From Spirochaetes bacterium RBG_16_49_21 (GTDB lineage: Bacteria; Spirochaetota; UBA4802; UBA5550): 64,000 bases of DNA. Shown piece after piece: positions 1 through 19,033 of the stretch; the first letter of the stretch is position 1; each line of letters starts with the position of its first letter. The position numbers and the translations under genes were made by a program. The DNA lies in NCBI GenBank assembly GCA_001829495.1, contig MIBJ01000068.1, positions 46,560 through 110,559 of the forward strand, given 5' to 3'. The notes beneath the pieces were generated by a model, which saw nothing but the letters and a program-made list of their open reading frames with translations, was not told the DNA's origin and searched no databases.

Positions 1-748
1 CCTCGGCCATCTGGCTGCGCGCGCTGTTGTGCACGCAGAGGAAGAGGACTCCGCGGATATTTTTCTTCGCGCTTTCAAGCGATTCCCGATGGCGCACGTC
101 CCTGCCCCTGGTCATGTAGATGACGAGCTCGGCCAGGTTTTTCACGTGATCGCCCATGCGCTCGATGTTTTTTATCACCGCCTGTATATTCATCGCCTCG
201 AAGGTGTCGGCGGGATCGTTCTCGATGATCTTAAGGGAGGCGCGGAATATCTCCGCGTAATGAGCGTCAAGCAACGCGTCGCGCTCGATTATCTTTTCGG
301 CAAGAACCGCGTCTCCGCCGACAAAAGCCGTCCTCGCGTCGTCGAGCATGGAGCGCAGGATGTCGCCCATCGCGAGTAAATCGTCGGGCAAACGCCGGCC
401 GCCGTGACTCGCACATTCCCCGGCTCTCTTGCAGATGGTAACCGCGTGATCGCCGATCCGCTCGATGTTCGGAACAAGCTTGAGGACCGCCACGAGAAAA
501 CGCAGGTCCGACGCCACGGGCTGCTGCTTGGCGAGCACCGATACGCAGAGGTCGTCGATCTCGAGCTCCAATTCATTGACCTCCTCTTCCAGGCGCATCG
601 TTTTTTTCGCGAGCGGGATATCATTATTGATGAAGGCGCGGATGCCGTCGGACACCATTGCCGCGGCCTTTTCCGTCATGGTGATCATCCGGTCCCGTAT
701 CATGTTGAGCTGGGCCTGATATTCGCGGTCCGTATGCTGGTATGCCAT
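1..748 (-). CDS. phoU: PhoU phosphate-signalling protein fused in frame to a C-terminal ArsC/LMW-PTP domain (3' end outside window)
   Basis: Missing from the ORF track because it has no stop codon. Manual translation from ATG 748 gives MAYQHTDREY...QQPVASDLRFL...IERIGDHAVTI...IERMGDHVKNLAELVIYM (two PhoU repeats), continuing without a stop into NIRGVLFLCVHNSARSQMAE (CX5R P-loop). Last gene of the pst operon. Confidence 0.93.
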   Translation of the reverse strand, partial: MAYQHTDREYQAQLNMIRDRMITMTEKAAAMVSDGIRAFINNDIPLAKKTMRLEEEVNELELEIDDLCVSVLAKQQPVASDLRFLVAVLKLVPNIERIGDHAVTICKRAGECASHGGRRLPDDLLAMGDILRSMLDDARTAFVGGDAVLAEKIIERDALLDAHYAEIFRASLKIIENDPADTFEAMNIQAVIKNIERMGDHVKNLAELVIYMTRGRDVRHRESLESAKKNIRGVLFLCVHNSARSQMAE

Positions 749-782
749 ATACTATCCCCGTTTTTTATTATTTTCGGCCGTA

Positions 783-1619
783 TCATCCGAACCGGCCGGT
801 TATATAATCTTCTGTTCTCGTTTTATGGGGCGACTTGAACAGAGTATCCGTATCGCAATATTCCACGAGCTCTCCCATATAAAAGAACGCGGTGTAATCC
901 GACACCCGTGCGGCCTGCTGCATGTTGTGCGTGACTATGATGATCGTGATGCCCCCGCGCAGGGAGTGAATGAGGTCCTCTATTTTCGCGGTTGCGATGG
1001 GATCGAGGGCCGAACAGGGCTCGTCCATGAGCAGAATCTCGGGCTCTATGGCGAGCGCCCGCGCTATGCAAAGCCGCTGCTGCTGTCCTCCCGAGAGGCT
1101 CGTCCCTGGTTTGTCGAGAACGTCCTTTACCTCGTCCCACAGCGCGGCCTGCCGGAGCGAGCGCTCCAGCACGTCGTCGCCGGCGCTCCCCCGCGTTCCC
1201 TGAAGCGGTATCCCGGCGAGAACGTTATCCTTCACCGACATCATGGGAAAGGGATTGGGCTTCTGAAACACCATGCCGATCCTTCTGCGAAGCATGACGG
1301 GATTGACCTTCGGGTCATATATGTCTTGTCCCGCGAAATACACGGATCCGGATACGCGCGCGCCGGGTACGCCCTCGTGCATGCGGTTGAGGGTTCGTAT
1401 GAACGTAGATTTTCCGCATCCCGACGGGCCGATGATCGCCGTGACCGCGCCCGCGGCAATTAAAATATCAACGCCCTTGAGCGCCATCAGGGAGCCGAAC
1501 CAGGCGCGCAGAGCAACGGTTTTTATAACCGCGGCCCCGTCCCGGATGCCGGTATAATCGCGGCGGTCTTCGTCCCCTCCTTTCTCTTTATGACCTGATA
1601 TCGGTTCGATTGTTTCCAT
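783..1619 (-). CDS. pstB: Phosphate ABC transporter ATP-binding protein PstB
   Basis: Walker [10 protein letters not shown], signature [24 protein letters not shown]-terminal [10 protein letters not shown] typical of PstB. Confidence 0.97.
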
Positions 1620-1644
1620 GGAACAACCCCTTCTCCGTCCGGTT

Positions 1645-2526
1645 TTAATCGATTCTCCTCTGCAGCCTGTATCTCAACGCTATGGCAAGGCTGTTCATAA
1701 GAATCATGATAACGAGCAATACTATTATACCCGCCGCGGCATTGACGTGAAAATCGCTCTGAGGGCGCGAAATCCAGTTGAATATCTGCACCGGCAGGGC
1801 GGTGAACGGGCTCATAACGGAATCGGGCAGAAAGGCCACATAGGTAAGCGCCCCTATCGTGATAATGGGCGCTGTCTCGCCGATTGCCCTGGACAGGGAC
1901 AGGATGACGCCCGTGAGAATTCCGGGAAGGCTTAAGGGGAGTACGATTTTCCGAATCGTCGTCCATTTGTCGGCGCCCAGGGCATAGGCTGCTTCGCGAA
2001 GGTCCCCGGGCACCATGCGCATCGATTCCCTGGCGGCCATGATTATCATGGGAAGCACCATGAGGGAGAGCGTTGCCGCTCCGGCAAGGAGGCTTCGCCC
2101 CATGTTCATGAACCGCACGAAGAGCCCCAGGCCGAGAAGGCCGTAAATAATGGAAGGAACGCCCGCCAGGTTGCTGATGTTTATTTCGATGAAGGCCGTG
2201 ACCGCGTTTTTCCCTGCGTATTCCTCCAGGTAGATCGCGGCCCCGATTCCCAAGGGCAGGGCTATCGCGGCGGTAAGGATCATGAGAATCGCGCTTCCCG
2301 CAAGGGGGGAGAGTATCCCGGCCCGGGCGGCGAAGCGCGAGGGAAAGCCTGTCAGAAAATCCCACCCCAATCTGGGTAATCCGTCGACGGCCGTGTCGAT
2401 GAGCAGCACCGCCAGTATCACGAAGGGAACCATGACCGCCAGCGCCATGATCGCCTTAAAGGCTTTTTCGATCTTCTCATCCATCGCCCGGAAGGAGAGG
2501 TCCTGCGCGATTCCTTTTTTTCTCAT
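1645..2526 (-). CDS. pstA: Phosphate ABC transporter permease PstA
   Basis: [26 protein letters not shown] loop, SRAIGETAP; operon position. Confidence 0.95.
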
Positions 2527-3434
2527 TACAATGCTCCTTTTAGGAGTTTCCTGCGAAGATAGAGCGCAAGAAGATTAAAAGCCAGCGTCATGACGAACAG
2601 CATCGCTCCCACGGCGAAGATCGTGTTGTATTCCAGCGTCCCGTGGGGAGTGTCGCCGAGGCTCACCTGCACGATGTAGGCGGTCATGGTCTCTATGGGG
2701 ACCCGCGGGTCCAGCGTGAGAACCGGCTGCTGGCCGGCGGCGATGGCAACGATCATGGTTTCGCCTATGGCGCGCGATATTCCCAGGATAAAAGAGGCGG
2801 CGATTCCCGAGAATGCGGTGGGGAGTATGACGTGCCGGATGGCTCGGAGCCTGTTGCTCCCGAGGGCGATCGCTCCCTCGCGGAGGGAGGCGGGCACCGA
2901 GTATATGGCGTCCTCGCTCAAGGAGGCGACGATGGGGGTGATCATGATCCCCATCACCAGACCGGGACTCAGGGAGTTAAAGCCGGCCAGCTCCGGGATG
3001 AATCCCTGCAGCAGGGGCGTCACAAAAGTGAGAGCGAAATAGCCGTACACGACGGTGGGAACGCCGGCGAGCACCTCGAGTACGGGCTTTAATATCCTCC
3101 TTAGCCTCTCCGGCGCGAACTCGCTTAGAAAAATCGCGATCAGTATCCCCATGGGTACCGCGACTATCATTGCGAAGAAACTGGTGAGCGCGGTGCCGGC
3201 AATGAGCGGCCATATTCCGAAATGCTTTTGATCAAACAGCGGCGTCCATTGCGTGTCGAAAAAAAACTCGCTTAAGGGAACCTGCCTGAAAAATTCAACG
3301 GTCTCGAAGAAGAGCACCATGATAATTCCCGCAGTGACGGCAACGGACATCGCCGCGCACGCGAAAAGCGCGGCGGATATCCATCGTTCCGTAAGAGAGC
3401 GGCTCTGGAGCAGATCCGGTTTGCGGTTGTCCAT
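2526..3434 (-). CDS. pstC: Phosphate ABC transporter permease PstC
   Basis: [25 protein letters not shown]; operon position. Confidence 0.95.
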
Positions 3435-3447
3435 GATCTATTCCGGT

Positions 3448-4455
3448 TTATTTCTTTTTAAGGAGCTCCTCAACGGTAACGCCCACCTTCGATCCCGAAA
3501 ACACCGTACCCGTTACACGGTCGCTTACGCGCTTTGCCGCCAGTTGATAGGCGCCCTGGGGAAGGGGAATATAACCCACCTGCTTTGCGAGCTGCGGCAC
3601 GTTTTTCAAATAGAACTCGACAAAGGCCCGTACCTCCGGTTTTTTCTCCATGGATTCCTTTCGGACATAAATAAAAAGCGGACGTGAGAGGGGCTGATAA
3701 GTGCCCTTTCTAACGGTTTCCTGCGAAGGCCGTATCGGGCCCCTGCCGTTTCCAGGCTTGCCGTCGTCTACCGCCACCAGCTTCAGCTTGTCCCTGTTCT
3801 CCTCATAATACGCCAGCCCAAAAAATCCCAGCGCGAACTTGTCGCCGGCGATACCCTGGACCAGGACATTGTCGTCCTCACTTGCAGTGAAGTCACCGCG
3901 GCTGGAATGCTCCTTGCCCACGATAGCTTCGGTGAAATAATCATAGGTGCCGCTGTCGGCCCCTGCTCCGTAAAGATGGATGTCTTTATCCGGCCATCCC
4001 GGGCGGACCTGGCTCCATTTCATGATCCTTCCCTGCGCCTCCGGCTCCCAGAGCTTCTTAAGCTCGGCGACGGTCATGTAATCGCACCAGTCGTTCTGCG
4101 GGTTTATCAAAACCGCCAGACCGTCATACGCCACCGGTATTTCGATGTACTCGATTCCCTTTTCAACGCACCTGTCCTGCTCGGTTTTTTTTATCGGGCG
4201 CGACGCGTCGGAAATATCGGTCTCCGCCCCGCAGAATTTTTTGAATCCGCCGCCGGTGCCCGATATGCCCACGGTGACGCGTATACCTTTGTTCGATTTC
4301 TGGAATTCCTCCGCCACCGCTTCGGTGATGGGATACACGGTGCTCGACCCGTCGATCGAAATCGTGGCGGCCGGATTTTTCCCGCACGCTACGGCGAAAA
4401 GCGCTGCAAACGCAATATTGATCGTCATTGAAATTCTAAGCGGTCTTTTTTGCAT
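3448..4455 (-). CDS. pstS: Phosphate-binding lipoprotein PstS
   Basis: Lipobox [44 protein letters not shown]. Confidence 0.95.
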
Positions 4456-4741
4456 AAGGCAACCTCCATAGAAATTTATTTAAGATATCACACTATTTCG
4501 CCCCACAACGAAATGATATGATAATATACCGATAATTCCCGGAGATCAAATCTTTATAAAGGATTTGTTAAGATAATATAAATATCTTGCAATCCACTGC
4601 TAAAAATGATCCAGCCTGTCATTGCGTCTAATATGAAAACCGCATAAAGTTATATCGTCAACAAATAAAAACTCCGCGGCTTGCCGCTCTGCTTTTTATT
4701 ACTTGACCTTGCGCCGCGCAAAGGAATAAATTTTTGTTAAT

Positions 4742-5986
4742 ATGATTGAGAATATGATGAAAATTAAGAAAGGAGGGCCAGGCCGCTGGATCGGTCTTGC
4801 CGAGGCCCGCGCAATCTGCTTCGATAAAACGCCGCTTATTGATAAAGAAGAGGTGCACATTATCGATTGTTCCGGAAGAGTCGCGTTCTGCGATATGACC
4901 GCCATAGTCAATTCTCCATCCGTCACCGCCTCACTCAAAGACGGATACGCCGTACATTCATCTGATGTCGCTGCCGCCTCGCGGCAAAACCCGATAAGGC
5001 TTGTCCTCTCCGGTACTTCGGCGGCGGGCGACTCGGGAACAGGACCGCTGGCCACTGGCTGCTCGGCCCGAATACTTACCGGCGCGCCGCTGCCCCAGGT
5101 GGCCGATGCGGTCGTTTCTCAGGAATTCGTCAATGTACAAGACGGATTCGCACTATTCACCGCCGATGCGGATCCCGGCAGGAACGTGCTGGTGGAGGGC
5201 GCCGACGTGCGAATCGGCGAAATAATTCTTCGCAGGGGAGAAATCCCGACTCCCGGGCGTATAGGCTTGCTGGCGGCGGCAGGCGTATCAACCCTGCCGG
5301 TATACCGCATGCCGCGAATACTTCTTATAGCCACAGGCGATGAGATCGTGGAACCGGGCACGCCGCTGAAAAAAGGGGGGCTCTACGCAAGCAACCTGGT
5401 GACGCTTGCTTCATACAGCGTTTCGCGCGGACTTCATGCGGACATGCGAATAGTGAGCGACTCGCCTGAATATCTGAAACAAGCCATCACCGGTGCGAAT
5501 GGGCCCTACGACGCTCTCTGTATCATAGGCGGGGCCTGGGACGGTGACAGGGACTTTACCATGTCGACGCTCGATGAACTCGGATGGGAGCCGTATTTCA
5601 GAAGGGTGCGCATGGGGCCTGGAAAGGCGGTGTCATTCGGCCGTTTGGGAGGCAAACCGGCATTCAGCCTGCCCGGAGGTCCGCCGTCGAACCATATCGC
5701 ATTTCTTCAACTGGTACTGCCGTCCCTTTTGCACATGGGAGGGCATATGCCGCCATATCTTCCTCTCGTGCGGGCGACTCTTACCGAAGAGGTCTCCGGT
5801 CAGGAAGACTGGACCCAATTTATTCACGCAAAGCTTTCCAGTGAAGAGGGTGAATTGAAAGTAACGCCCCTCCGCTCGAAAAGCCGGCTCCGGGACATGG
5901 CGGATTGCGACTCTCTCATTGAAATTCCGGAAGGAAAGACACGCATTGAGCGGGCAAGCATTATTGATGTTCAAAGGATAGTGTAA
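4742..5986 (+). CDS. moeA: Molybdopterin molybdotransferase MoeA
   Basis: SLKDGYAV, RILTGAPLP, ATGDEI, MGPGK...SLPGGP motifs of the MoeA/gephyrin-E family. Confidence 0.92.
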   Translation: MIENMMKIKKGGPGRWIGLAEARAICFDKTPLIDKEEVHIIDCSGRVAFCDMTAIVNSPSVTASLKDGYAVHSSDVAAASRQNPIRLVLSGTSAAGDSGTGPLATGCSARILTGAPLPQVADAVVSQEFVNVQDGFALFTADADPGRNVLVEGADVRIGEIILRRGEIPTPGRIGLLAAAGVSTLPVYRMPRILLIATGDEIVEPGTPLKKGGLYASNLVTLASYSVSRGLHADMRIVSDSPEYLKQAITGANGPYDALCIIGGAWDGDRDFTMSTLDELGWEPYFRRVRMGPGKAVSFGRLGGKPAFSLPGGPPSNHIAFLQLVLPSLLHMGGHMPPYLPLVRATLTEEVSGQEDWTQFIHAKLSSEEGELKVTPLRSKSRLRDMADCDSLIEIPEGKTRIERASIIDVQRIV

Positions 5987-6014
5987 GGTATGAAGGAACC
6001 GATTAGGGAGACCG

Positions 6015-6497
6015 TCATTTATCTTCAATCGATATGATGATCTCTTGCGCGTCGGTGCACTCTTTCAGGGAGGTAATCATACCTTTGACTGCATTGGAAA
6101 GCATATTTGCGATAAATGGCTTCAGCGGCACCGCTCTGCCGTTCACGCAAAGCCGGATAGATTGACCCGGTCGTGACCCGAGAAAGCGCTCCTCAATGAG
6201 ACCTGCGAGCCCTGCGGCGTCGTTTATAGAAAACTGGGGAACATTGATGTCGTGCCGGGAATCGGTGGCGATAGCGATCAGATTGTCGTTTTCTCCGCAG
6301 AGGAGGTCATCATATACCGCGCCGCGAAAAACCTCGATTTTAGGCTTTGAATTGCGTTTGTAGCCTTCAGTCAGAATGATATCGACGCCGTGGATGAAAC
6401 GCGCGGCGATATCGTCAATATCGAGTTCCTCGTAAAGCCCGTCAATATGAGCGACTTATCCTCCCCGAACCTTTTGCTCATGCCTCCTGCCAATACG
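6015..6497 (-). pseudogene. Chimeric remnant: ~18 codons of the MobA N-terminus joined out of frame to the C-terminal half of MobB
   Basis: The minus strand directly after the 6498 stop reads VLAGGMSKRFGEDKSL (MobA/NTP-transferase N-terminal motif). Another frame, 6434-6015, reads YEELDIDDIAARFIHGVDIILTEGYKRNSKPKIEVFR...VPLKPFIANMLSN...IEDK*, clearly paralogous to the intact MobB at 62751 but with no start codon or P-loop. Confidence 0.8.
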
Positions 6498-7808
6498 TCA
6501 GAAATAATACCGTGCGCGTAGATCCCACCGATGGTCGGCCGGTTTTTCACCGAATTCAGAATTCCTGCCTCCCCACAAAAATGCATATCTGAATCGAAGC
6601 TCGAGATTATTTACTCCTGTATAAAGCAATTCAGGCGTCAGGCTGAAACTCAAATCGTCTATGTTGAACATCACGGTAAGCGCTGGGGTAAAGTAGAGAA
6701 TGTCAAAGGGCTCCTTCTGGCTGACGCGCAAATACAGATAGTTTTTCATGGGAGTGAATCTACCGTAGGCGCCTTCAGTCAGCGCCTCGGCCGCTCTGAA
6801 CGGCAATTCTTTTAGAGTAGCGCGATATGTATAATAAGCCTCATTAATCAGGAAATAATAACTGCGCATCTCGGACACCGACATGCCGGATGCATTATGA
6901 TAATATTCGATGATGACGGTGGTCTCTATCTCCGTCAGATAGCGTATGCCCCCAAGAGCGGCGATTGCGTTGATTTTCCGTTTTCGCGCCATGCCCGTAG
7001 TTCCAAGGGAAAGCTTTGTTATTCCGGGCAGATATGCGAATTCTCCGTGAACCTCCAAATTGGTCGTGATGTTCCTCGACACGTCGATCCCCAACCTGTA
7101 GTTATTCTCCAACCCAGTAAAAAAAAGAAAGTCGATGTCCGTATCGAAAAACAGGAGATAGAGCTTGCCTGCAAAATACCAATGCCCGGCCCCGCCGAAA
7201 TTTTCATTAATACCCTTGTAAACGGGCACGACAACGGGTGTAAAAGAAAGGGTTTTAAGGGGCCCGGTGAAGCTGGCGATGAAGTCCGCGGTCGCGACCG
7301 TGTATCCCTCATACGCGAGCTCCGGATCGTCCGGGTTTTTCGGCCGGTCAACGAAGGCGACCGGATTCCAGGCGTATCCCTTCCCCCATTTCAGTGTCTT
7401 TTTGCCCGCGTCGATAACCACATGCTGGTTCGGCTTGAGAGAAGCGTATCCTTCATAGAGACGCAAATCAAACGGCCACCGGCGGTTTGAATATCCAAAT
7501 GCTTCGTATGCCCTGGCAAACGCCTTGAATATGCCCTTTTCAAACGTTAATTCCGGCTGAAGTCTTAAATACGCGTCCGCGTATGGACTGCCGGGATTGT
7601 TCTGGTAATATTTTAAACGAAAAAGCGCGCTCTTCAAATCGGCTATATACAGCGAGGGGAATAATTCAACATACCCGCCGATCGAAAAGGGTTTTTTTTC
7701 GACCTCAGATTCTTCGAATTTGAATTCATTATCATCTTCAGCGTAAATTCTTAATGCCATGCCCGCCAGCGCCGCGCAGCCTAAAGTAAGAATAATGAGA
7801 AGCCTCAT
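6498..7808 (-). CDS. Exported outer-membrane beta-barrel-like protein accompanying the ABC/LolA-like module
   Basis: Signal peptide, GKKTLKWGKGYAWNPVAFVD motif, amphipathic strands, C-terminal RYYF (BAM-type terminal Phe). Confidence 0.7.
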   Translation of the reverse strand: MRLLIILTLGCAALAGMALRIYAEDDNEFKFEESEVEKKPFSIGGYVELFPSLYIADLKSALFRLKYYQNNPGSPYADAYLRLQPELTFEKGIFKAFARAYEAFGYSNRRWPFDLRLYEGYASLKPNQHVVIDAGKKTLKWGKGYAWNPVAFVDRPKNPDDPELAYEGYTVATADFIASFTGPLKTLSFTPVVVPVYKGINENFGGAGHWYFAGKLYLLFFDTDIDFLFFTGLENNYRLGIDVSRNITTNLEVHGEFAYLPGITKLSLGTTGMARKRKINAIAALGGIRYLTEIETTVIIEYYHNASGMSVSEMRSYYFLINEAYYTYRATLKELPFRAAEALTEGAYGRFTPMKNYLYLRVSQKEPFDILYFTPALTVMFNIDDLSFSLTPELLYTGVNNLELRFRYAFLWGGRNSEFGEKPADHRWDLRARYYF

Positions 7809-7811
7809 GGA

Positions 7812-8543
7812 TCACCTGAGTGAATCCACGCGGGGCATGAATGTCAGGGTGAACACCTCATCTCCGACCGATCGCTTCTTTATTTTCGAAAAAATCATTA
7901 TTGAGCGATAACCCTTGTACAGGGGGCTCACGGTCTCAATGACCGACGGCCGGACGATCCCGCCGGTGAAGTCTTTTATATTTTTGAAATTGAGGGTCTT
8001 GATAAGCATGTTTTTCTCGGTAAGGCAGTCGATCCTGACGGGTATCTTTCTCTGTTTTTCGGCCCGGAGGCGGATCCGGTCATACGCAACGCTCCTGTTC
8101 CTGGCCTTGAGGTGAAGAAGATATTCACCGCCTTTTATTTCAAGCTTTTCAACTTTATATTCAGCGCTGTAATCGAGAGCCAGAATATCCGCGTTATTGA
8201 ATACCCCCCCGATAACCGATTGAAGAGAAGTAATCCGGATCGGTTTTCCCACGTTGGGCACGTACAGCCACATATTGTCTCCAAGCCGGAGCGTGCTCCT
8301 TCCCTTGTCGCTCGCGGGAGCAAGAAAGAGCGCGATCAACTTGTCCACCCCTTTTTTAAGGCTGAAGAGCACATATTCCTTCTTGCGGCCGTCCGGTTCG
8401 ATATTGATGATCTTTCTATATGATTCATACGATTCCGGGTTCAGGTTCCGGTCGATCTCGCGCAAGAGCCGGTCCGGCTCCTCTTCGCCCGCATAACCGG
8501 CCGTAAAAAACAGCAGAATGAAAACCATCAATAATCGTTTCAT
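7812..8543 (-). CDS. Outer-membrane lipoprotein-sorting (LolA-like) periplasmic protein
   Basis: Start moved to MKRLLMVF (RBS GGAGG), signal peptide; FLAPASDKGRSTLRLGDNMWLYVP motif typical of the LolA_like family. Confidence 0.8.
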   Translation of the reverse strand: MKRLLMVFILLFFTAGYAGEEEPDRLLREIDRNLNPESYESYRKIINIEPDGRKKEYVLFSLKKGVDKLIALFLAPASDKGRSTLRLGDNMWLYVPNVGKPIRITSLQSVIGGVFNNADILALDYSAEYKVEKLEIKGGEYLLHLKARNRSVAYDRIRLRAEKQRKIPVRIDCLTEKNMLIKTLNFKNIKDFTGGIVRPSVIETVSPLYKGYRSIMIFSKIKKRSVGDEVFTLTFMPRVDSLR

Positions 8544-8565
8544 GTCATCCTCCGGTATCGATTTT

Positions 8566-9802
8566 CTATACGTGCCTGAGCGCTTCCACCGGCTCCATCC
8601 GCGACGCTTTATATGCGGGATAGAACCCGGCCGCAAGGGACACGGCGAGCACCGTGATCGTTATCGCCACGGTTTCCGGCGCGCTCAATGACGCCCTCAG
8701 TACAAGCCCCTGCTGCATTCCGAAATTAAAGGTGATCCCCGCCGCATTGACGATGATGATGATAATGGCCCCGATAACGACTCCCGCGATCGACCCGGCC
8801 GCGCCGAGAAGGAACCCCTCGGTAATGTACATGTACAGAATCTTTTCGGGAAGCGTCCCGATAGCGGCGATCGTACCGATTTCACGGATGCGCTCATACA
8901 CCGCCATCATCATCACGTTCATGATGCTAATGAGCACGATGGCGACCAGCATTATTCTGACAAACTGGGTCATCACGTCGATCATTTTTGCGATATTCAC
9001 GAAAGGAGAAAGCCCCTCCCATGTATGCACCTCATAAACCGGTTTTCCCCCGCTCGATAAACCGGCTAACTCCTTTTTGATGCTTTTTTCAAACGAGCCG
9101 AGCTTGTCAAAATTTTTTACGCGAACGGCCACCTCGCTCACCTCGGCTTTTTCCATGCGAAGAAGCTCGACCGCATCGTCAAAATTAATATATCCGTCCC
9201 TGCCGCCGGGCCCGACCACGCTGCTTAAGATCCCCGACACGGTGAATTGCATGCCGTTGACCGAGCCGTCCCTGTTGGTCGCGACAATAACCACGGCATC
9301 GCCCGTCTTGACGCGCATGCCCTGCGCCAAAAGCTCGGGCACCAGTATTTCCCCTCTTTTGAGAGAGTCGCTTCCCGCTGTTATCCTTTTTGTCAGCAGC
9401 GGCGTTGTTTTATATTCTTTGTCGGGATACACGCCGTTTAAACGAATATTGGTCGTTTCCGCGAAATTGCTGAACATACCGGCGAACTTGATGCGGTGAG
9501 AATATGCCTCCACCGCCCTGTTCTTTCGTAAAACCGTTTCAACTTGCATAAACTGCTCCATGCTCAGCGTGAGATTGAGCGGCAGATTTTCTATGGAGGC
9601 GACGTATCCCTTTCGGTGGATCTGCGCGTGGCCCGAGCATCGAATCCGTGATCTGCCCGACAATCATGTTTTTAAACGATCCCGAGACGGCAACATAGAC
9701 CACGACAAAAACGACCCCCAGGGTAATGAGGGACGACGTCAAAAGGGTCCGCCGTTTGTACCGTATCAGGTTGCGTACGGCAATTTTAATTATGCTTCGC
9801 AT
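8566..9802 (-). pseudogene. FtsX/LolE-like ABC permease with a single +1 frameshift at ~9633 (possible sequencing error)
   Basis: The 5' part (IAVRNLIRYKRRTLLT...ITDSMLG) and 3' part (HAQIHRKGY...ERIREIGTIAAIG...PAYKASRMEPVEALRHV) are in different frames. Removing one G from CTCGGGCCAC joins them. Confidence 0.8.
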
Positions 9803-10520
9803 GGGCTTTCCCCCTTTTCGTTTTTGCGCGCTTCTTTATCGTTTTCCTTTGTGTTATCAGGCCGTCCTCCAGCGAATATATGATTTCGGCCTCTCCCACG
9901 ATCTTCTGATCATGCGTGGAGAAAATAAACGAGGTCCCGAATTCGTCCCTCATCTTTCTCATGATCGCTATGACGCGGTACGCGGTGTCATGATCGAGGT
10001 TCGCCGTGGGCTCGTCCGCCAGCACGATCTTCGGATTCGTCGCCAGGGCTCGGGCGATGGCAACCCGCTGCTTCTGCCCGCCGGATATCTGGTCCGGATA
10101 CTTCCCCTTCTGGTCTTCCATGCCGACTTCGGCGATGAGCCTTCTCACGCGCTCCCTCCTCCTGGCGGGCGGAATGTTCTGAACCATCATCAGGGGGTAT
10201 TCGATGTTCTCAAAGACTGTCAGAACCGGTATCAGGTTAAAATCCTGAAAAATGAAACCTATCCGCTCGCCGCGAAACGCCGCCCGCTCCCTTCTGGTGA
10301 GCTTCGATATGTCGGTTCCCTCGATTATGACGCTGCCTCCGGTGGGCACGTCGAGGCATCCGAGAATGTTCAGCAAGGTCGTCTTTCCGCTTCCGGACGG
10401 CCCGATGAAGGAAATAAACGACGACGGGTCGATTGTGAAGGTCAGTCCCTTGAGCGCCGGCACGGTTATCTCTCCGGCCGTATAGTTCTTTTGCACGTTA
10501 TCGGCGGTAATAAGTTTCAT
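9786..10520 (-). CDS. ABC transporter ATP-binding protein (LolD/MacB-like)
   Basis: [37 protein letters not shown]. Confidence 0.93.
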
Positions 10521-10567
10521 AATCTCTCCCGTTAGAGCGGCTTACAGCCTGCGCTTTCATACTTTTC

Positions 10568-11239
10568 TCATTTGCTTTGGTTCCTGAGGCGCTCCATAAT
10601 CTCCTTCGCTCTTTTTACCGCTTCCTGTTCTTTTTCATCAGACGGCACGCACCATGGTTGGGTGACCTGCCATGTCAGCGAACCGGAGAGAGGGGGTTCC
10701 GGGTAAGCGCCGGCATCATGCACCGTGTAGCCCATGAATTCCACGGGATTCTCCTGGAAGCATGACCATACCGCCTTTCGCATGATTTCCGGGTCGCCCT
10801 GAAACTGGAGATCGATGAGCATCACCTGTTTTCTGAACCGCTCGATGAATTCCGCCGGAACATTGTACAGGAACGGATGAAGGGCGTCGGTGCCGATGAT
10901 CTTCTTCTTTTCGTCGACGCCATTTGCCATAAGGGCCTTTAGCGCTTGTCCGGTCTGATGGCCCTCGGATTCCGGTCCGCCAAGAATTAAATATCTGATA
11001 TTCGGATTGGCCACGACGTTGCAGATAATTTTTTCGAAGCCGATATTGGGCGTCTGCAGCGTGCCGGAGAGGGCAGCGCCGCTTTCCGCGCCAGCACGGA
11101 CCAGGCGCTCGATCTCAGGCGGGATTTTATCCGCATCGGTGTTGAGGATGATCGCAACCGCGACCGGGGAAAAATCGTTTCCCCGGATGTACCTCCCCTC
11201 TTCCGGGGGATAATCGGGATGCGGCTTTACTTTTAACAT
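10568..11239 (-). CDS. Stand-alone MtrA/MtxA-family corrinoid-binding protein (soluble, no C-terminal membrane anchor)
   Basis: YPPEEGRY..GNDFSPVAV, GTLQTPNIGFEKIICNVVANPNIRYLILGGPESEGHQTGQALKALMANGVD...IIG...FIERFRKQV matches the methanogen MtrA core, including the cobalt-ligating His (GHxTGQ). Confidence 0.85.
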   Translation of the reverse strand: MLKVKPHPDYPPEEGRYIRGNDFSPVAVAIILNTDADKIPPEIERLVRAGAESGAALSGTLQTPNIGFEKIICNVVANPNIRYLILGGPESEGHQTGQALKALMANGVDEKKKIIGTDALHPFLYNVPAEFIERFRKQVMLIDLQFQGDPEIMRKAVWSCFQENPVEFMGYTVHDAGAYPEPPLSGSLTWQVTQPWCVPSDEKEQEAVKRAKEIMERLRNQSK

Positions 11240-11241
11240 GG

Positions 11242-12285
11242 TTATGAAAAAAATCTCCTCCTGAAAAAAAGCGCCACGTTCACAAGCCCGATAAGCACCG
11301 GCACCTCCACCAGGGGCCCTATGACCGCGGCAAAGGCAACTCCGGAACCGATGCCGAAAACCGCGACCGCGACCGCGATGGCAAGCTCGAAGTTATTACT
11401 CGCGGCAGTGAACGATAGCGTCGCGGAAACGCAGTAGTCCGCGCCTATTTTTTTGCTCATGTAAAAGCTCAGCAAAAACATGACCACAAAATAGATGAGA
11501 AGCGGTATGGCGATCCGTACGACATCGAGCGGTATCTTTACAATGTACTCGCCCTTCAGGCTGAACATGACCAGGATCGTAAAGAGAAGCGCGATTAGGG
11601 TCATGGGGCTGATCTTCGGGACGAACCTCGTCTGGTACCATTCCTTGTTTTTAAGCTTGATAAGCGCGAAACGGGTTATTATGCCTGCAATAAACGGTAT
11701 GCCTAGGTAGATGAACACGCTTTCTGCTATCTGGCCGATCGTTACGTCCACCAGTACGCCCCTCAGGCCGAAAAGCGGAGGGAGCACGGTTATGAAAAAC
11801 CAGGCATACACGCTGAAAAAGAGCACCTGGAATATGCTGTTGAAGGCCACGAGCCCGGCCGCGTATTCAGCGTCACCGCAGGCCAGGTCGTTCCACACGA
11901 TTACCATGGCGATGCACCGCGCCAGGCCGATCATGATAAGGCCCACCATGTATTCCGGATATCCGGCGAGGAACAGGATCGCGAGGAAAAACATGAGCAC
12001 CGGGCCGATGACCCAGTTCTGAACAAGGGAGAGCCCGAGGACCTTCCAGTTTTTAAACACGTCGCCCAGCTCTTCGTATTTGACCTTGGCCAGGGGAGGA
12101 TACATCATGAGAATGAGGCCGATGGCAATGGGAATGTTGGTAGTGCCGACCTGAAACCGGTTCCAGAACCCTGCCACGCCCGGATAGAAATAGCCCATGC
12201 CCACGCCAATGGCCATAGCCAGGAATATCCAGAGGGTGAGAAACCGGTCGATAAAAGATAGCTTTTTACCTTTCGCTTCAGACAT
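11242..12285 (-). CDS. acr3: Arsenite efflux transporter Acr3
   Basis: [58 protein letters not shown]: diagnostic Acr3 motifs. Confidence 0.97.
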
Positions 12286-12345
12286 GACAGCCTCCTCAAA
12301 AGTAAAAATTTATGGCCTGACCAATATTGTGCCCTTCCTTAATCC

Positions 12346-13047
12346 TCACGGTAAAAAAACAAGATATAGTCCGCCCAGGATCACGAGCACACCGCAGGCT
12401 TTTTTGAGAATGACCGCGCCCCGCGATTTTTCGTTCCAGTTAAGATACCGTTGAACTACCTCGGTGAAGGTGCCCGCGAGCACTATGACCGAGCAATGCC
12501 CCGCCGCGTAAGCCAAGATGAGGGATATCGCGAAGACGACTTTCGTGTGCGCTACGCTGAACACAATGCCGAGCATGGGCGCCATGTAGGCGAAGGTGCA
12601 GGGCCCGAGAGCGATGCCGAAGACGAGGCCCAGAATGAGCGCAGCGAAAAGGCCCTTTTTCTTAAAATTCGGATTGGCGCTCCTTTCAAGAAAAGGCAGA
12701 GGAATGACGCCCAACAGGTGGAGCCCGACAATGAAAAATACTACAGCCACGATATAGTTGCCCCATCCGCCGATATCGCCCATCATGCGGCCCATGAGGC
12801 CGGTGATGAGGCCGATAATGCCGATGGTAACAAGAATTCCGACGGCGAACAGGAGCGCCAGAATAAAGGCCCGTTTCGTACTCATGCTTCCCTGCTCGTC
12901 GATGAACCCGATGATGAGGGGTATACTCGCCAGATGGCAGGGCGAGAGCAGGATGCCCGCGATCCCCCAGAGGAAGGAGCCTGCCAGGGCGATGCCCGGC
13001 GAGGACGAGAGCATGGCGCTCATTGCGTTGAAAAAATCGGCAAGCAT
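12346..13047 (-). CDS. ccdA: CcdA/DsbD-family transmembrane electron transporter
   Basis: Six TM segments with LSPCH and GPCT redox cysteines. Confidence 0.88.
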   Translation of the reverse strand: MLADFFNAMSAMLSSSPGIALAGSFLWGIAGILLSPCHLASIPLIIGFIDEQGSMSTKRAFILALLFAVGILVTIGIIGLITGLMGRMMGDIGGWGNYIVAVVFFIVGLHLLGVIPLPFLERSANPNFKKKGLFAALILGLVFGIALGPCTFAYMAPMLGIVFSVAHTKVVFAISLILAYAAGHCSVIVLAGTFTEVVQRYLNWNEKSRGAVILKKACGVLVILGGLYLVFLP

Positions 13048-13565
13048 CAGCGGACGCCTCCTTTTTCAAGCACCTGCTCCAACTCCTCAAAGGGGAAGTA
13101 TCCGAGGTGCCGAAAATACTCCTTCCCGTTCCGGTCAAGGAAGACCTGGGTGGGTATAGCCTGTATACCGTATTTCTGGCCGTAGGGCCTTCCTTCCGGG
13201 GTCCAGATATCGTAAAATATTACCTTGACCCGGCTTCCGTATTTTTGCTCGATTCGCCGCATCACCGGCTGCATCATTCTGCAGGGGATGCAGTTGACTG
13301 AGCCGATTTCGATAAACGTCACCATGACGCCCGGTGCGGCGCCTTTTGTGTCCCCGTGCCCGGTATTTTCATGTTTGGTCGAATTCTCGTCCACCGCCGC
13401 CGGGCCGGTCGGAGCCTTTTCCCCGCCGCAGCCGAAAACGCCGCCGAAAAAAGCGAGAGGAAGCGTCAATGCGCCGCTTTCGCAAGGGCAGTTTCGCGCC
13501 CTGCCCCAGATCATCGCTGCGGCAGCGATCACAGCGAGAATTATAAGCCTTTTAGCGAGCTTCAT
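13047..13565 (-). CDS. Exported or membrane-anchored thioredoxin-fold protein
   Basis: Start at MKLAKR (RBS GGAGGAG); hydrophobic N-terminus with CPC and FGC; CIPC active site and cis-Pro motif AIPTQVF. Confidence 0.85.
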   Translation of the reverse strand: MKLAKRLIILAVIAAAAMIWGRARNCPCESGALTLPLAFFGGVFGCGGEKAPTGPAAVDENSTKHENTGHGDTKGAAPGVMVTFIEIGSVNCIPCRMMQPVMRRIEQKYGSRVKVIFYDIWTPEGRPYGQKYGIQAIPTQVFLDRNGKEYFRHLGYFPFEELEQVLEKGGVR

Positions 13566-13582
13566 GCGCGTATCTCCTCCCC

Positions 13583-13794
13583 CTACACGACGCCGACACG
13601 TTTCAAGTTCTTCCGCGCGCATGCAATGGGACACCCGTCCAGGTGATGTTCACTTCCACTCCCGCAAGACAGGTCTTTTGCGCGAAGCCTTCCTTCCATA
13701 GTTTCCGCATCGCCCTATCTGCCAGTTCCCCCACGTCAGCCGCGCCTGAACATGAATACAAAAGTCTAACTCCTTCGTAACAGCAATCAGCCAT
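13583..13794 (-). pseudogene. DGC-domain (zinc-binding) protein, frameshifted and shortened
   Basis: MADCC...LLYSCSGAADVGELADRAMRKL...TCLAG; after a 1-nt shift near 13642 it continues DGCPIACARKNLKRVGVV*. The linker before DGC and the C-terminal third appear to be missing. Confidence 0.75.
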
Positions 13795-13822
13795 GATTCT
13801 TCCCCATAAAATAATTTTAGTT

Positions 13823-14923
13823 TTAATAAATCAGATTAAACACATATCCTACGATCATGATGCCGACGGCGACGACACTGACGAATATGAAAATTAAGGG
13901 CAATTTAAGTACTTTTTTCAATATAATCATCTCCGGCAGTGAGAGACCTATGACCGACATCATAAAGGCAAGGGTGGTTCCGAGCGAGGCCCCCTTTTCA
14001 AGAAGGGCCTGAACGACCGGAATGATGCCCGCCGCGTTAGAGTACATGGGCACGCCGATAATGACCGCCAGTGGAATTGACCACCACGCCGATTTGCCCA
14101 TGATGGACGCCATGAAATTCTCCGGCACATAGCCGTGAATGCCTGCGCCGACGCCGATCCCGATCACTATATAAATCCAGACCTTTGATACAATCTCAAT
14201 AACTGCGACATATCCGGCCTGAATCCTTTCGGTAAAAGTCGTTTTTCTTTCTTCTATTTCAAGTTTGCCCGCTTTTATTTCATGTACCCATTCTTCGACA
14301 AAGCGTTGGACTTTAAGCTTACCAATGATCCAGCCGGAGAAAATTGCGATAATAAGGCCGGTGGAGGCATATAAGAAGGCGGTTTGCCAGCCGAAAAGGC
14401 CGAAGAGGAGCACGAGAGCGACCTCATTAATCATAGGGGCGGCCACCAAAAAAGAGAAGGTGACGCCCAGGGGGATTCCGCTTTCCATGAAGCCCAGGAA
14501 TAGCGGTATCGCAGAACAGGTACAGAAGGGCGTTACGATCCCGAGCGTGCTCGCCATGATATTCCCGACGAGCAGGGGCTTTCCTTCGAGGGCCCTGCGT
14601 GTTTTTTCAGGTGAAAAATAAGAGCGGATGATCCCGACGATGAATACAATGAACGTCAGAAGAATAAGCACCTTGGGAACTTCAAACATAAAAAAGCGGA
14701 TCGCCTCGGTGAGATGGGAATTTTTATCCATACCCAGCATGGAATACATGATATAGTTGACGCCGCTTTCAAGAAAAATATAAAGAACGATCCCGATGGG
14801 AGCGAGCAGCAGCGGTAATACAGTCCTGATTTTAATATTTTTCCTCCCGGTTTGCGGGACCGCATTTAAGTCTATATTATTTTGAACATAATATTCATTC
14901 ATGAATAAATTCCCGGTGTTCAT
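13823..14923 (-). CDS. arsP: ArsP-family (DUF318) permease
   Basis: LGIVTPFCTCSAIPLF, LVAAPMINE, GVPMYSNAAG, GLSLPEMIIL; located in an ars cluster. Confidence 0.88.
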   Translation of the reverse strand: MNTGNLFMNEYYVQNNIDLNAVPQTGRKNIKIRTVLPLLLAPIGIVLYIFLESGVNYIMYSMLGMDKNSHLTEAIRFFMFEVPKVLILLTFIVFIVGIIRSYFSPEKTRRALEGKPLLVGNIMASTLGIVTPFCTCSAIPLFLGFMESGIPLGVTFSFLVAAPMINEVALVLLFGLFGWQTAFLYASTGLIIAIFSGWIIGKLKVQRFVEEWVHEIKAGKLEIEERKTTFTERIQAGYVAVIEIVSKVWIYIVIGIGVGAGIHGYVPENFMASIMGKSAWWSIPLAVIIGVPMYSNAAGIIPVVQALLEKGASLGTTLAFMMSVIGLSLPEMIILKKVLKLPLIFIFVSVVAVGIMIVGYVFNLIY

Positions 14924-14927
14924 TGTA

Positions 14928-15173
14928 TCAGGTCGGTTGCCCGACGCTGATCCATTTTTTTATTTCATCTTTGGCCGGAAGTTTCCCCGCAACCTTCACC
15001 ACGCCGTCAACTACAAGGGCTGGGGTTGCCATAACACCATAGTTCATGGTGGACTGTATGTCAGTGACGTGATTTATATGGGCTTCTATGCCCGTTTCAT
15101 GAACCGCCTCTCTGGTCAAGGCTTCCAGCTTGTGGCACTTGGCGCAACCGCTGCCTAATATCTCGAGTAACAT
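14928..15173 (-). CDS. Small redox-active disulfide protein (thioredoxin-like, MTH895 type)
   Basis: EILGSGCAKC...YGVMATPALVVDG; typical ArsP partner. Confidence 0.9.
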   Translation of the reverse strand: MLLEILGSGCAKCHKLEALTREAVHETGIEAHINHVTDIQSTMNYGVMATPALVVDGVVKVAGKLPAKDEIKKWISVGQPT

Positions 15174-15280
15174 AATTTGTTCTCCTTAAATTATTTTATT
15201 CATTATGCAATGAATCGCATTCCTTAATTAATATTAATTATCTTTTCTCCTCTCAATACGGGCACACTATTAGTTTTATA

Positions 15281-15304
15281 ATATTTGAAAAAATTGCCAA
15301 ATAT
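15281..15304. promoter_or_regulatory. Putative ArsR operator 2
   Basis: ATATTTG-N10-CAAATAT inverted repeat between arsR and the thioredoxin gene; shares ATTGCCAAATAT with the reverse complement of the site at 15676. Confidence 0.6.
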
Positions 15305-15317
15305 TACAAACAAATAA

Positions 15318-15677
15318 TCACCGTTTCGTTTTACAGGCCAAAAGTATCTCACCCTGCTGCCTCGCGTTTGACTCAATGACATCCTCCAAACAGCCGAAAA
15401 ATCCGAGGATACAGGGCGTCCGTAAATAATAAAAAATATTGTTCCCCGATCTCTTGTCGCCGATCAGGCCCGCGTTTTTCAGCACCGAAAGATGCTTCGA
15501 GACCGTTGATACGTCCGCTCCGATCATGTCGGTGAGATCGTTCACGCACCGCTCTCCCTTCTCGAGCTCTTCGATGATAAAGAGCCGCGAGGGATGGGCA
15601 ATGGCTTTTATGATCTTAGCCCGCGCCTCGTACTGCATCTTTTGCGTCGCCGTAAGCTGGCTTTTTAATATTTTCAT
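15318..15677 (-). CDS. arsR: ArsR/SmtB-family repressor
   Basis: KAIAHPSRLFI..ERCVNDL..STVSKHLSVLKNAGL HTH; C-terminal PCILGFFGC cysteine pair; start at 15677 follows a -35/-10 pair. Confidence 0.9.
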   Translation of the reverse strand: MKILKSQLTATQKMQYEARAKIIKAIAHPSRLFIIEELEKGERCVNDLTDMIGADVSTVSKHLSVLKNAGLIGDKRSGNNIFYYLRTPCILGFFGCLEDVIESNARQQGEILLACKTKR

Positions 15678-15713
15678 ATTTGGCAATATGGCAAAATATC
15701 CAAACATTGTCAA
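15676..15713 (-). promoter_or_regulatory. Leaderless arsR promoter overlapped by operator 1
   Basis: Minus strand TTGACA-17-CATATT-7nt-ATG; imperfect palindrome ATATTTGGCAATATGGCAAAATAT at 15676-15699. Confidence 0.65.
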
Positions 15714-15740
15714 GGCATTTTTCAGATTTTTTTAACAGCC

Positions 15741-15772
15741 CCGTAAGGGCGCATCATGATGCGCCCTTACGG
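15741..15772. repeat. REP-like perfect 32-bp palindrome, copy 1
   Basis: CCGTAAGGGCGCATCA|TGATGCGCCCTTACGG; a related copy lies at 16192. Confidence 0.75.
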
Positions 15773-15957
15773 CCACCGGGTATTTACGCACTGCAATAAA
15801 AAAAATTATTTTAAAAAAATTTTTTGACATCACGGTCTTATTATCGTTATCATTGACTTTTTCTATGGCAGATTCCCGAAATATTTAACGTCTCCCGATG
15901 ATCCGGATCAGTTGAATCGAAGGCGAAATACAACAAAAATACACAAAGGAGAAAATA

Positions 15958-16119
15958 ATGCAGAAATATCAATGCATGGTATGCGGCTATATCTATGATC
16001 CGTCCGCGGGGGACCCGGACAGCGGCGTCAAGCCGGGCACCAAATTCGAAGACATACCCGACGACTGGGTGTGCCCCTTATGCGGAGCGCCGAAGAGCGA
16101 TTTTGAGCCGGTCGATTGA
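15958..16119 (+). CDS. Rubredoxin
   Basis: Below the ORF-track size cut-off: [53 protein letters not shown]; RBS AAGGAG. Confidence 0.97.
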
Positions 16120-16191
16120 TCCGATTTGCAATTCCGGAGAGAAAAAATATATCTGAGTTATATATTAGACGTGTTGCAAAACTAAATCAGC

Positions 16192-16225
16192 ACAGCAGGG
16201 GCGCACCATGATGCGCCCCTGCTGT
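16192..16225. repeat. REP-like palindrome, copy 2
   Basis: ACAGCAGGGGCGCACCA|TGATGCGCCCCTGCTGT, with the same GGGCGCA.CATGATGCGCCC core as 15741. Confidence 0.7.
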
Positions 16226-16243
16226 AGATAAAGAGGAGGATGC

Positions 16244-16429
16244 ATGAAAGCAAAAGTTGACCCGGATACCTGCACAGGATGTGAATTGTGCACCCAAACA
16301 TGCCCTGAGGTCTTCAAAATGGAAGGGGATGTGGCGGTTGCGTATGTCAATCCGGTGCCCAAAGAGTATGAAGATCTGGCGAAACAGGCGGCTGATGAGT
16401 GCCCCGTCGAAGCTATTTCGATTGAATAG
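16244..16429 (+). CDS. Single-cluster ferredoxin
   Basis: CTGCELC...CP and distal ECPVEAI; RBS GAGGAGG. Confidence 0.93.
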   Translation: MKAKVDPDTCTGCELCTQTCPEVFKMEGDVAVAYVNPVPKEYEDLAKQAADECPVEAISIE

Positions 16430-16458
16430 CTCGAAAACCCCTGGAGCTATGCAGTAAC

Positions 16459-16486
16459 CCCCCAACCCCGCCGGCGGGGTTGGGGG
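16459..16486. terminator. GC-rich hairpin between convergent ferredoxin and bfr genes
   Basis: Perfect palindrome CCCCCAACCCCGCC|GGCGGGGTTGGGGG; no clear U tract. Confidence 0.5.
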
Positions 16487-16504
16487 CGGATTTGTCAGGC
16501 ACTC

Positions 16505-16969
16505 TTAAACCTTCGTCGACAGGAACATCTGCAGTCCCATCTGGCCAACCTGGTCCTGCATCTCTTCAATATCGTCGATATGGCCGTCTTCATCCTTGAG
16601 TATGGACTCCAGAATCTCCCGTGTCGCGAAATCCGCCACGTCCCCGCCAAGCTTTATGGCTTCATTATACGCCTTGATTGCGTCGCGCTCAGCCGTATGA
16701 TCGTTTGCAAGCTGCTTCGGCACGTCGGCTCCGATATTGATCTTCCTGAGTTCGTTGACAACGGGCACCCCTTCCAGAAAGAGGATACGGCCGATCAGCT
16801 TTTCCGCGTGCTTCATTTCGACGATTGCGCGTTTTTCAATATCCTCATGAAGCTTGTCATAGCCCCAGTTCGCGCACATCTCCGAGTGCACCATGTATTG
16901 ATTGATCGCGGTCAGCTCGTCTGCGAGAAGCGAATTAAGGGCTTGTATGAGTTTATCGTTACCTTTCAT
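16505..16969 (-). CDS. bfr: Bacterioferritin
   Basis: MKG..LNSLLADELTAINQY..H, EMKHAEKLIGRILFLEG (haem-ligand Met), ferroxidase DEDGH. Confidence 0.95.
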   Translation of the reverse strand: MKGNDKLIQALNSLLADELTAINQYMVHSEMCANWGYDKLHEDIEKRAIVEMKHAEKLIGRILFLEGVPVVNELRKINIGADVPKQLANDHTAERDAIKAYNEAIKLGGDVADFATREILESILKDEDGHIDDIEEMQDQVGQMGLQMFLSTKV

Positions 16970-17039
16970 TGAAAACCTCCATATGGCATAATAAATTTGT
17001 TGAATGACTAATTATAATAATATATCCGGAAGCCTGCCG

Positions 17040-17477: not shown

Positions 17478-17555
17478 GATGTTAACCTCCGATTCTAATT
17501 ATATCTTACATCAGGCTAAATGGTTACGTATAAAAATGTCAAGATTAATAATAGA

Positions 17556-18215: not shown

Positions 18216-18244
18216 TATTTCCTCCTTGAAAGGGTACGTCAGGA

Positions 18245-18814: not shown

Positions 18815-18877
18815 AGGTCTAGTGTAGTTATAAACTCAGATATTGTCCATTAAAATAAAACGCGGGATTATGCAGCA

Positions 18878-18909
18878 GATTGCTTCGTCGCAGCGCTCCT
18901 CGCAATGAC
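18878..18909. repeat. Half of a GTCATTGCGAG-type intergenic palindromic element
   Basis: GATTGCTTCGTCGCAGCGCTCCTCGCAATGAC resembles a widespread miniature repeat family (recognised from memory). Confidence 0.55.
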
Positions 18910-19033
18910 AATTATTTTTACGGCTAATTAAAACACGAGAAAAAATATATATGGTGCCCGTGCGTATAAATCCTTGACAAAGTTATTCCAATATCTACGG
19001 GTATTTTAAATCTGAAGACACAGGAAATTCAAC

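Follow-up and report, generated by a model that had tools for sequence, protein, structure and literature searches.

A PhoU protein fused to an arsenate reductase-like domain at the end of a pst operon lodged within an ars operon

Introduction

Why should a protein of the phosphate-import machinery carry a domain that resembles an arsenate reductase? The question is raised by a gene at the left end of a 64,000-nucleotide (nt) stretch of contig MIBJ01000068.1 of Spirochaetes bacterium RBG_16_49_21 (G000:C68:46560-110559 in our numbering, hereafter the window), which has 46 kb of the same contig to its left. The gene follows pstS-pstC-pstA-pstB on the minus strand and encodes a PhoU protein joined to a C-terminal domain of the low-molecular-weight protein tyrosine phosphatase (LMW-PTP) fold, which is also the fold of the thioredoxin-coupled arsenate reductases (ArsC). 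The risk from arsenate is greatest when phosphate is scarce and the Pst system is induced, and the defences under ArsR control respond to arsenite, which appears only after reduction. Published work describes PhoU as the connection between PstSCAB and PhoR (PMC9239213; PMC13577022), phosphate transporters as the route by which arsenate enters (10.1101/870428), and thioredoxin-coupled ArsC as an enzyme of relayed thiol-disulfide exchange (PMC6193951). The explanation that we favour, and to which we give an even chance of being right, is that the fusion is an active arsenate reductase, produced together with this Pst importer and probably held there through PhoU, and that it would convert incoming arsenate to the arsenite on which ArsR and Acr3 act.

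Results

A complete gene joins phoU to an arsC-like domain

The window holds only the first 249 codons of the fusion gene (Table 1), and its 3' end is open there because the frame runs off the window edge. When the frame is read on in the source contig, it is uninterrupted by any stop and yields a complete protein of 366 residues. A sequence-only reading of the window had traced the frame from the second PhoU repeat through RESLESAKKNIRG into VLFLCVHNSARSQMAE and had placed the fusion after pstSCAB. The translation of the open reading frame (ORF) agrees with that path, and the fusion proves to be real, complete and positioned as described. A stop or frameshift just past the window edge was looked for and is absent, and the ArsC domain is complete. 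The window fragment alone matches PhoU in Pfam with an E value of 1.7e-45, and its LMWPc score of 15.4 bits lies under the cut-off of 23.2; the full protein scores 66.4 bits for LMWPc (E = 4.1e-18) and 152.2 bits for PhoU (PF01895; cut-off 23.5), the latter over two stretches. Cys311, Cys316 and Asp331-Pro332 of the ArsC domain are all encoded outside the window.

The junction between the PhoU and ArsC modules is bridged by a 553-nt contig from another public run (X4 record 17, L001 1303-1855) with 0 differences and 0 gaps, and the stop between the domains that was sought in this contig is absent. No insertions or deletions relative to the fusion locus were listed for any of the four public runs compared; the runs were compared as assembled contigs and not at the level of raw reads, and the genome itself may derive from one of them. 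Since independent genomes encode the same fusion, it is no assembly artefact. The AlphaFold (AF2) model of the protein has a mean predicted local distance difference test score (pLDDT) of 92.5 and a predicted template-modelling score of 0.80, with a mean pLDDT of 63 over linker residues 221-230. A Foldseek search returned no solved chain that spans both domains.

The C-terminal domain is closest to thioredoxin-type arsenate reductases

The C-terminal ~135 residues are closest to the thioredoxin-type arsenate reductases, and the best solved relatives are all arsenate reductases. ArsC of Bacillus subtilis (1jl3) is matched with an E value of 4.5e-25 by sequence, and with a template-modelling (TM) score of 0.88-0.90 and 40% identity by structure (Foldseek); pI258 ArsC comes next. 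The LMW tyrosine phosphatases follow at E values of 1.1e-4 to 3.6e-4 and at Foldseek rank 38 and lower, and the score against the Wzb model is 21 bits, where the cut-off is 243. In the HMMER alignment to 1jl3, Cys238 and Arg244 fall on the Cys and Arg of the P-loop, Cys311 (within TLCG) and Cys316 on the two cysteines of the disulfide cascade, and Asp331-Pro332 on the Asp-Pro acid loop. The pair Cys311/Cys316 corresponds to Cys82/Cys89 of the solved reductases. The fold and the intact CX5R P-loop had been recognized from the window alone; both resolving cysteines and the Asp-Pro, which could be sought only in the complete gene, are present as well. These alignments place the domain in the ArsC branch of the LMW-PTP fold. 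The genome (G000) has four matches to thioredoxin genes that score over the cut-off.

The N-terminal module is a PhoU with its motifs unchanged

The PhoU module passes the TIGR02135 equivalog cut-off with 186.3 bits against 130.25. In the AF2 model it is a six-helix bundle, which Foldseek superimposes on 1t72 and 4q25 with TM scores of 0.94-0.96. The ERIGD and ERxGDH motifs (E96, R97 and D100; E196, R197, D200 and H201) are unchanged in every one of the 120 homologues described below, and the acidic E/D-x-x-x-D motif of each PhoU repeat has a metal-binding role. Two further, plain PhoU genes are present elsewhere in the genome, one of which adjoins phoB-phoR, and this leaves room for specialisation of the fused copy.

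Homologues of the fusion retain the catalytic residues

The homologue set comprises 120 listed sequences of 330-381 residues that are 42-68% identical to the fusion. The PhoU and LMWPc Pfam domains are both present in all of them, and the source databases, where they name these proteins, call them only 'PhoU'. The two-domain architecture was thus already in the databases, as had been supposed. Organism labels among the homologues include Burkholderiales, Deltaproteobacteria, Myxococcales and Phycisphaerae, and Leptospira is also labelled among fusion-bearing records.

Within this set the P-loop nucleophile Cys238 is kept in 118 sequences, Asn241 in 117 and Arg244 in all 120. Cys311 is likewise kept in 118, and Cys316 in 100, with a further 12 that carry a cysteine one column earlier (315); Asp331 and Pro332 are each kept in 117. 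All five catalytic residues are kept jointly in 106 of the 120. Mean pairwise identity is 0.65 for the PhoU module, 0.59 for the ArsC module and 0.27 for the linker, and on this measure the constraint on the ArsC module is comparable to that on the PhoU module.

A wider search among 1.84 billion cluster representatives gave 148 matches at E <= 1e-30, and about 25 of the 150 listed are full-length two-domain proteins. These 25 were classed by eye from the aligned motifs. The catalytic set is kept in 12 of them, counting P0134, which has Asn for the Asp, and P0167, which ends right after the Asp; two others have partial sites (P0122 without the Asp-Pro, P0133 without the Cys pair). A quick maximum-likelihood tree built from 30 full-length fusions groups the window protein with five others in a clade that has good support and whose six members were labelled live, P0134 with its Asn among them. 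P0025, also labelled live in this tree, is without the second Cys. A tree of the ArsC domain alone (fused, adjacent and apparently free forms) has good support for 1 of its 36 inner branches, and it is therefore uninformative on the number of fusion events. Three of the representatives that appear free in it, P0144, P0178 and P0184, start inside the C-terminus of a PhoU and are probably fragments of fusions.

A resident arsC lies directly downstream, and the whole module sits within an ars operon

A stand-alone arsC of 153 residues (TTG start) begins 16 nt past the fusion stop, just outside the window. Its product carries the canonical loop CTGNSCRS, the cysteine pair in TLCGHAAEQCP, and FEDP, and it is 42% identical to the fused ArsC domain. 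A contig from another run (X2 record 9) spans the fusion stop and the arsC start without difference. The fusion and this gene are the only LMWPc-family genes in the genome, and no glutaredoxin-type ArsC (PF03960) is matched in the assembly, which is 94.7% complete. The sequence-only reading had noted that the nearby ars operon has acr3 but no arsC, which is true inside the window; a canonical stand-alone arsC lies just outside it, and since that gene starts so close downstream of the fusion, its apparent absence is a window-edge effect. The related proposal, that the fusion supplies the reductase missing from the ars operon, does not survive: a canonical arsC adjoins the fusion here, and the two relatives that carry a live fusion, G030 and G040, have two further ArsC-like genes each. 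We therefore rejected the fusion as the replacement of a missing arsC, the genus's resident arsC being present directly downstream.

Comparison within the genus shows how this arrangement differs from the usual one. Of the genus's 16 other genomes, 12 encode a counterpart of the stand-alone ArsC (65-79% identity), and in six of the seven loci compared arsC directly follows either acr3 or acr3 and the mtrA-like gene. In G003 the full order is arsR, arsP, acr3, mtrA-like, arsC. In the present genome ~10 kb separate the mtrA-like gene from arsC (window 1-10567 plus the 351 nt to its left). This stretch contains one ORF without an assigned family, an FtsX-like gene, a LolA-like gene, moeA and the pst-fusion operon. 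No matches to these genes at >= 40% identity occur in the 16-20 kb ars neighbourhoods of G003, G006 and G009. The stand-alone arsC is the genus's resident arsC, displaced from acr3, and the pst-fusion module sits inside the genus's ars operon.

Table 1 Features of the fusion gene, the pst operon and the ars operon. Coordinates are those of the window unless another reference is given.
Feature	Coordinates	Strand	Details
phoU::arsC fusion gene, 366 aa (P0001)	G000:C68:46207-47307 (L001 1148..2248)		runs 351 nt past the left edge of the window
First 249 codons of the fusion gene	2..748	minus	ORF, ATG start, open 3' end
PhoU module, two PhoU repeats, residues 1-220	89..748	minus	PF01895, TIGR02135, Foldseek
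Inter-domain linker, residues 221-232	53..88	minus	variable, lower model confidence
Start of ArsC module (LMW-PTP fold): first strand and P-loop CVHNSARS (Cys238, Arg244)	2..52	minus	
pstB, single ATPase gene, 278 aa	783..1619	minus	TIGR00972, 365.6 bits against 343.2 cut-off; PF00005
pstA, permease	1645..2526	minus	PF00528; 79-85% identical to the G040/G030 fusion-operon copies
pstC, permease	2526..3434	minus	PF00528
pstS, phosphate-binding protein	3448..4455	minus	TIGR02136, 310.1 bits against 206.6 cut-off
ars operon	10568..15713	minus	
mtrA-like, last gene of the ars operon	10568-11239	minus	NF002126, 200.2 bits against 161 cut-off
acr3	11242-12285	minus	455 bits against 282.8 cut-off
DsbD_TM protein	12346-13047	minus	
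Thioredoxin-like protein	13047-13634	minus	
DGC-domain ORF	13603-13794	minus	
ArsP-type permease	13823-14923	minus	
arsR	15318-15713	minus	

Between the ArsP-type permease and acr3 (12346-13794) lie the DGC-domain ORF, the thioredoxin-like gene and the DsbD_TM gene, and the ars operon therefore has thiol-disulfide components of its own. Two plus-strand ORFs in this region (window 12451-13185 and 13225-13701) match no family; they are probably spurious, since the minus-strand ORFs there match the DsbD_TM and thioredoxin families. The mtrA-like gene encodes a relative of subunit A of the tetrahydromethanopterin S-methyltransferase (MtrA), found here in a bacterial ars operon; the G003 protein is 80% identical and its gene has the same place.

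The pst operon has a GC content of 0.55-0.60, slightly above that of its surroundings in window 1-20000, a difference that is not decisive. A scan for promoters and terminators around the fusion and arsC gave counts no higher than in shuffled sequence, and the stretches that precede pstS in G000 and G040, when aligned, show no clear common motif. The genome has a second phosphate system on contig C33 (L094 120-7238), with phoB-like and phoR-like genes on one strand, and with pstS-pstC-pstA, two tandem pstB genes (253 and 251 residues) and a plain PhoU of 222 residues on the other. Contig C9 carries, at its edge, a third phoU-pstB pair. The window also holds an ordinary type II toxin-antitoxin pair (27979-28742, minus strand), in which a Phd/YefM antitoxin gene comes before a gene with a PIN domain.

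The fusion operon behaves as an accessory module

The fusion is found in none of the 16 other genomes of the genus, in 3 of the 41 genomes of the search among relatives (the present genome counted) and, at E <= 1e-42, in 4 of 301 genomes sampled from the phylum. The fourth of these, in G121, is a dead variant: it lies after pstCAB (L105 6472-7602, minus strand), has Thr in place of the P-loop Arg and lacks both the second Cys and the Asp-Pro. PstA of the fusion operon is 85% (a partial match) and 79% identical to its counterparts in G030 and G040, but no PstA of two genus-mates exceeds 40% identity to it. Valyl-tRNA synthetase, a housekeeping enzyme, gives the opposite order, with 80-84% identity in the genus-mates and 67-70% in G030 and G040. 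This contrast argues that the operon behaves as an accessory module, either transferred in or lost by most relatives. In both G030 and G040 the end of the fusion is overlapped by 4 nt by a gene of the ArsR/SmtB family encoding 119 residues (L103 13205-13564, minus strand; L104 11676-12035, plus strand), and in G040 a second arsR, arsD and arsA continue past it.

Eighty loci were kept from the genome collection. They were picked by either of two peptide patterns and are therefore no random sample. The two genes are fused in five, phoU is followed by a separate arsC within 400 nt in six, only PhoU is present in 33 and only ArsC in 35, and one locus is cut by a contig end. A pstB match accompanies 10 of the 11 fused or adjacent loci, the exception being L016. 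In L044, L055 and L081 the genes are separate, with overlapping phoU and arsC frames.

Discussion

A reductase placed at the importer

We propose that the fusion is bifunctional, its N-terminal PhoU acting as an accessory regulator of this PstSCAB and its C-terminal domain as an arsenate reductase that would be recycled by thioredoxin. By analogy with the B. subtilis and pI258 enzymes, arsenate would be attacked by Cys238 of the CX5R loop; formation of a Cys311-Cys238 disulfide would then release arsenite; and the disulfide would pass to Cys316 before its reduction by thioredoxin, with Asp331 as the acid. Because the reductase is in one chain with PhoU, its production would always accompany that of this Pst system. 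Should this PhoU bind PstB in the manner of its Escherichia coli counterpart, the reductase would also be stationed at the cytoplasmic face of the importer. The benefit of such proximity would be that arsenate slipping in with phosphate is converted at once to arsenite, the form that is sensed by ArsR and exported by Acr3.

Several observations weigh against this proposal. Some concern the domain itself. Cys311 and Cys316 are spaced C-X4-C, which makes the loop between them shorter by two residues than that of the solved enzymes; this is the only structural difference in the alignment to 1jl3. The domain scores 101.3 bits with TIGR02691 (arsC_pI258_fam), under the equivalog cut-off of 174.3; by NCBI's rule it is therefore an ArsC-like relative and not a certified equivalog (the neighbouring stand-alone ArsC, at 140.2 bits, is likewise under the cut-off). 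Others concern its evolution. Eleven of the 25 full-length representatives are degenerate, without the nucleophile and/or the Arg or, in P0172, without Cys311 and the Asp-Pro. The well-supported branches of the 30-fusion tree require at least six changes of the 'dead' label, and a single clade of the 11 dead forms is rejected (approximately unbiased test, p-AU 4.4e-6), so that catalysis has been lost repeatedly while the domain was retained. A domain retained without catalysis seems to be worth keeping for something else, which favours a non-enzymatic role. The genomic setting adds two further points. The fusion is not needed as the sole reductase, either in G030 and G040 with their additional ArsC-like genes or here with the adjoining arsC, and in the proteobacterial loci L015 and L016 it directly follows a PhoR-like kinase and does not lie beside ars genes. 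L016 has Gly for the nucleophile, with a Ppx gene nearby.

The main alternative, which we regard as possible though doubtful, is that the ArsC module is mainly a sensor; the sequence-only reading had likewise offered a sensor added to Pho signalling as its second option, and the repeated loss of catalytic residues in related fusions lends this weight. Arsenate turnover or oxidative stress would create the Cys311-Cys316 disulfide and alter the action of PhoU on PstB or PhoR; arsenate influx would throttle Pst or retune Pho signalling, and catalysis would serve the signalling. The survival of the domain after catalytic loss in many lineages fits such a role, as do the other ArsC genes in fusion genomes, the PhoR-like kinases just ahead of the fusion in L015 and L016, and the two plain PhoU genes of the present genome, one of them at phoB-phoR. 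In its fuller form, which we put forward just as tentatively, the fusion would be an arsenate- or redox-gated brake on phosphate import: reduction of arsenate would oxidise the ArsC module, which through PhoU would shut Pst or reset PhoR until thioredoxin restored it, and the dead fusions would be pseudoenzymes that keep the regulatory contact. Against the sensor stands the strong constraint on the five catalytic residues in the window's own clade (106 of 120), among them the acid Asp331, for which a simple redox switch would have no use. Moreover, the 12-residue linker is poorly conserved and modelled with low confidence, which does not suggest tight allosteric coupling, and a redox signal that reaches PhoU is a proposal only.

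It is unlikely that the fusion is neutral, that is, that an arsC downstream of phoU merely lost the intervening stop and that the halves work independently, with co-expression as the only consequence. The six loci with a separate arsC closely downstream of phoU, three of them with overlapping frames, are arrangements that a small change could merge, and the linker is both short and variable. The fused form nevertheless persists down to 42% identity and in records labelled Burkholderiales, Myxococcales, Phycisphaerae, Deltaproteobacteria and Leptospira, and the catalytically dead fusions still hold the domain, which neutral co-expression leaves unexplained.

The least probable alternative, and a very improbable one, is that the C-terminal domain is a phosphatase, perhaps with some small phosphate ester or a phosphorylated protein of the Pho pathway as its substrate, and so reinforces the negative role of PhoU: the CX5R loop and Asp-Pro are common to the LMW phosphatases, PF01451 is passed and some fusions adjoin PhoR-like kinases, but the similarity to phosphatases is far weaker than that to reductases (E ~1e-4 against 4.5e-25, with Foldseek ranks to match), a phosphatase is not known to need two resolving cysteines, which here align with the pair of the solved reductases and are kept in 118 and 112 of the 120 homologues, and the gene neighbours in this bacterial order are ars genes. 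A thioredoxin-type ArsC of Thermus is reported to have phosphatase activity as well (PMC8949286), which counts on the phosphatase side.

If the reductase proposal is right, an enzyme built into the accessory protein of Pst closes the gap between the entry of arsenate and a defence that senses arsenite, and the fusion would clearly exemplify detoxification by an enzyme fastened to the route by which its substrate enters the cell. If the brake is right, PhoU, whose sensing mechanism is still unclear, gains a defined ligand-responsive input. Common among environmental bacteria and known in live, split and dead forms, the fusion offers a natural experiment on the working of PhoU and on the change from enzyme to pseudoenzyme. 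It is readily testable by standard enzyme, two-hybrid and complementation assays.

Comparison with known systems

The PhoU-ArsC fusion, each half of which is of a familiar family, is widespread and seemingly unstudied. No study describing it was found in the full-text literature searched, in line with the earlier statement that no functional study was known; subscription journals lay outside the search, so that one may exist. The words 'fused' and 'fusion' are absent from 10.1101/870428. What is new here is the combination of an intact active site, a stand-alone arsC immediately downstream and a whole module inside the genus's ars operon.

Four known kinds of system invite comparison. The thioredoxin-coupled ArsC enzymes of LMW-PTP fold (B. 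subtilis 1jl3; Staphylococcus aureus pI258 1ljl and 2cd7) share the fold of the C-terminal domain (TM 0.85-0.90, 35-40% identity), and their P-loop Cys and Arg, both cysteines and Asp-Pro align with those of the fusion. The known enzymes are free proteins of ~130 residues, whereas the fused domain stands behind a PhoU. Its P-loop CVHNSARS has Ala where wild-type B. subtilis and pI258 ArsC have a second Cys, in addition to the shorter inter-cysteine loop and the score under the TIGR02691 cut-off. Canonical PhoU (Aquifex aeolicus 1t72, Pseudomonas aeruginosa 4q25; TIGR02135) has the same two repeats (TM 0.96, cut-off passed), the ERIGD motifs and a gene directly after pstB; the fusion differs in its extra ~135-residue domain and in being one of three PhoU genes, and not the copy beside phoB-phoR.

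Arsenic islands in which pst/pho genes lie beside ars and aio genes (Li et al. 2013, PMC3834237) provide the nearest precedent for linkage of phosphate transport with arsenic resistance. That paper describes neighbouring genes and uses neither 'fused' nor 'fusion'; in the present genome an ars operon encloses the pst operon, and the link is one polypeptide. Finally, the dead PhoU-ArsC-like fusions (P0123, P0125, P0147, P0237 and others, and that of G121) have the same domain order and length and also occur at pst operons. They have lost the nucleophile Cys, the Arg, the Cys pair or the Asp-Pro, whereas the window protein and its nearest clade hold them all.

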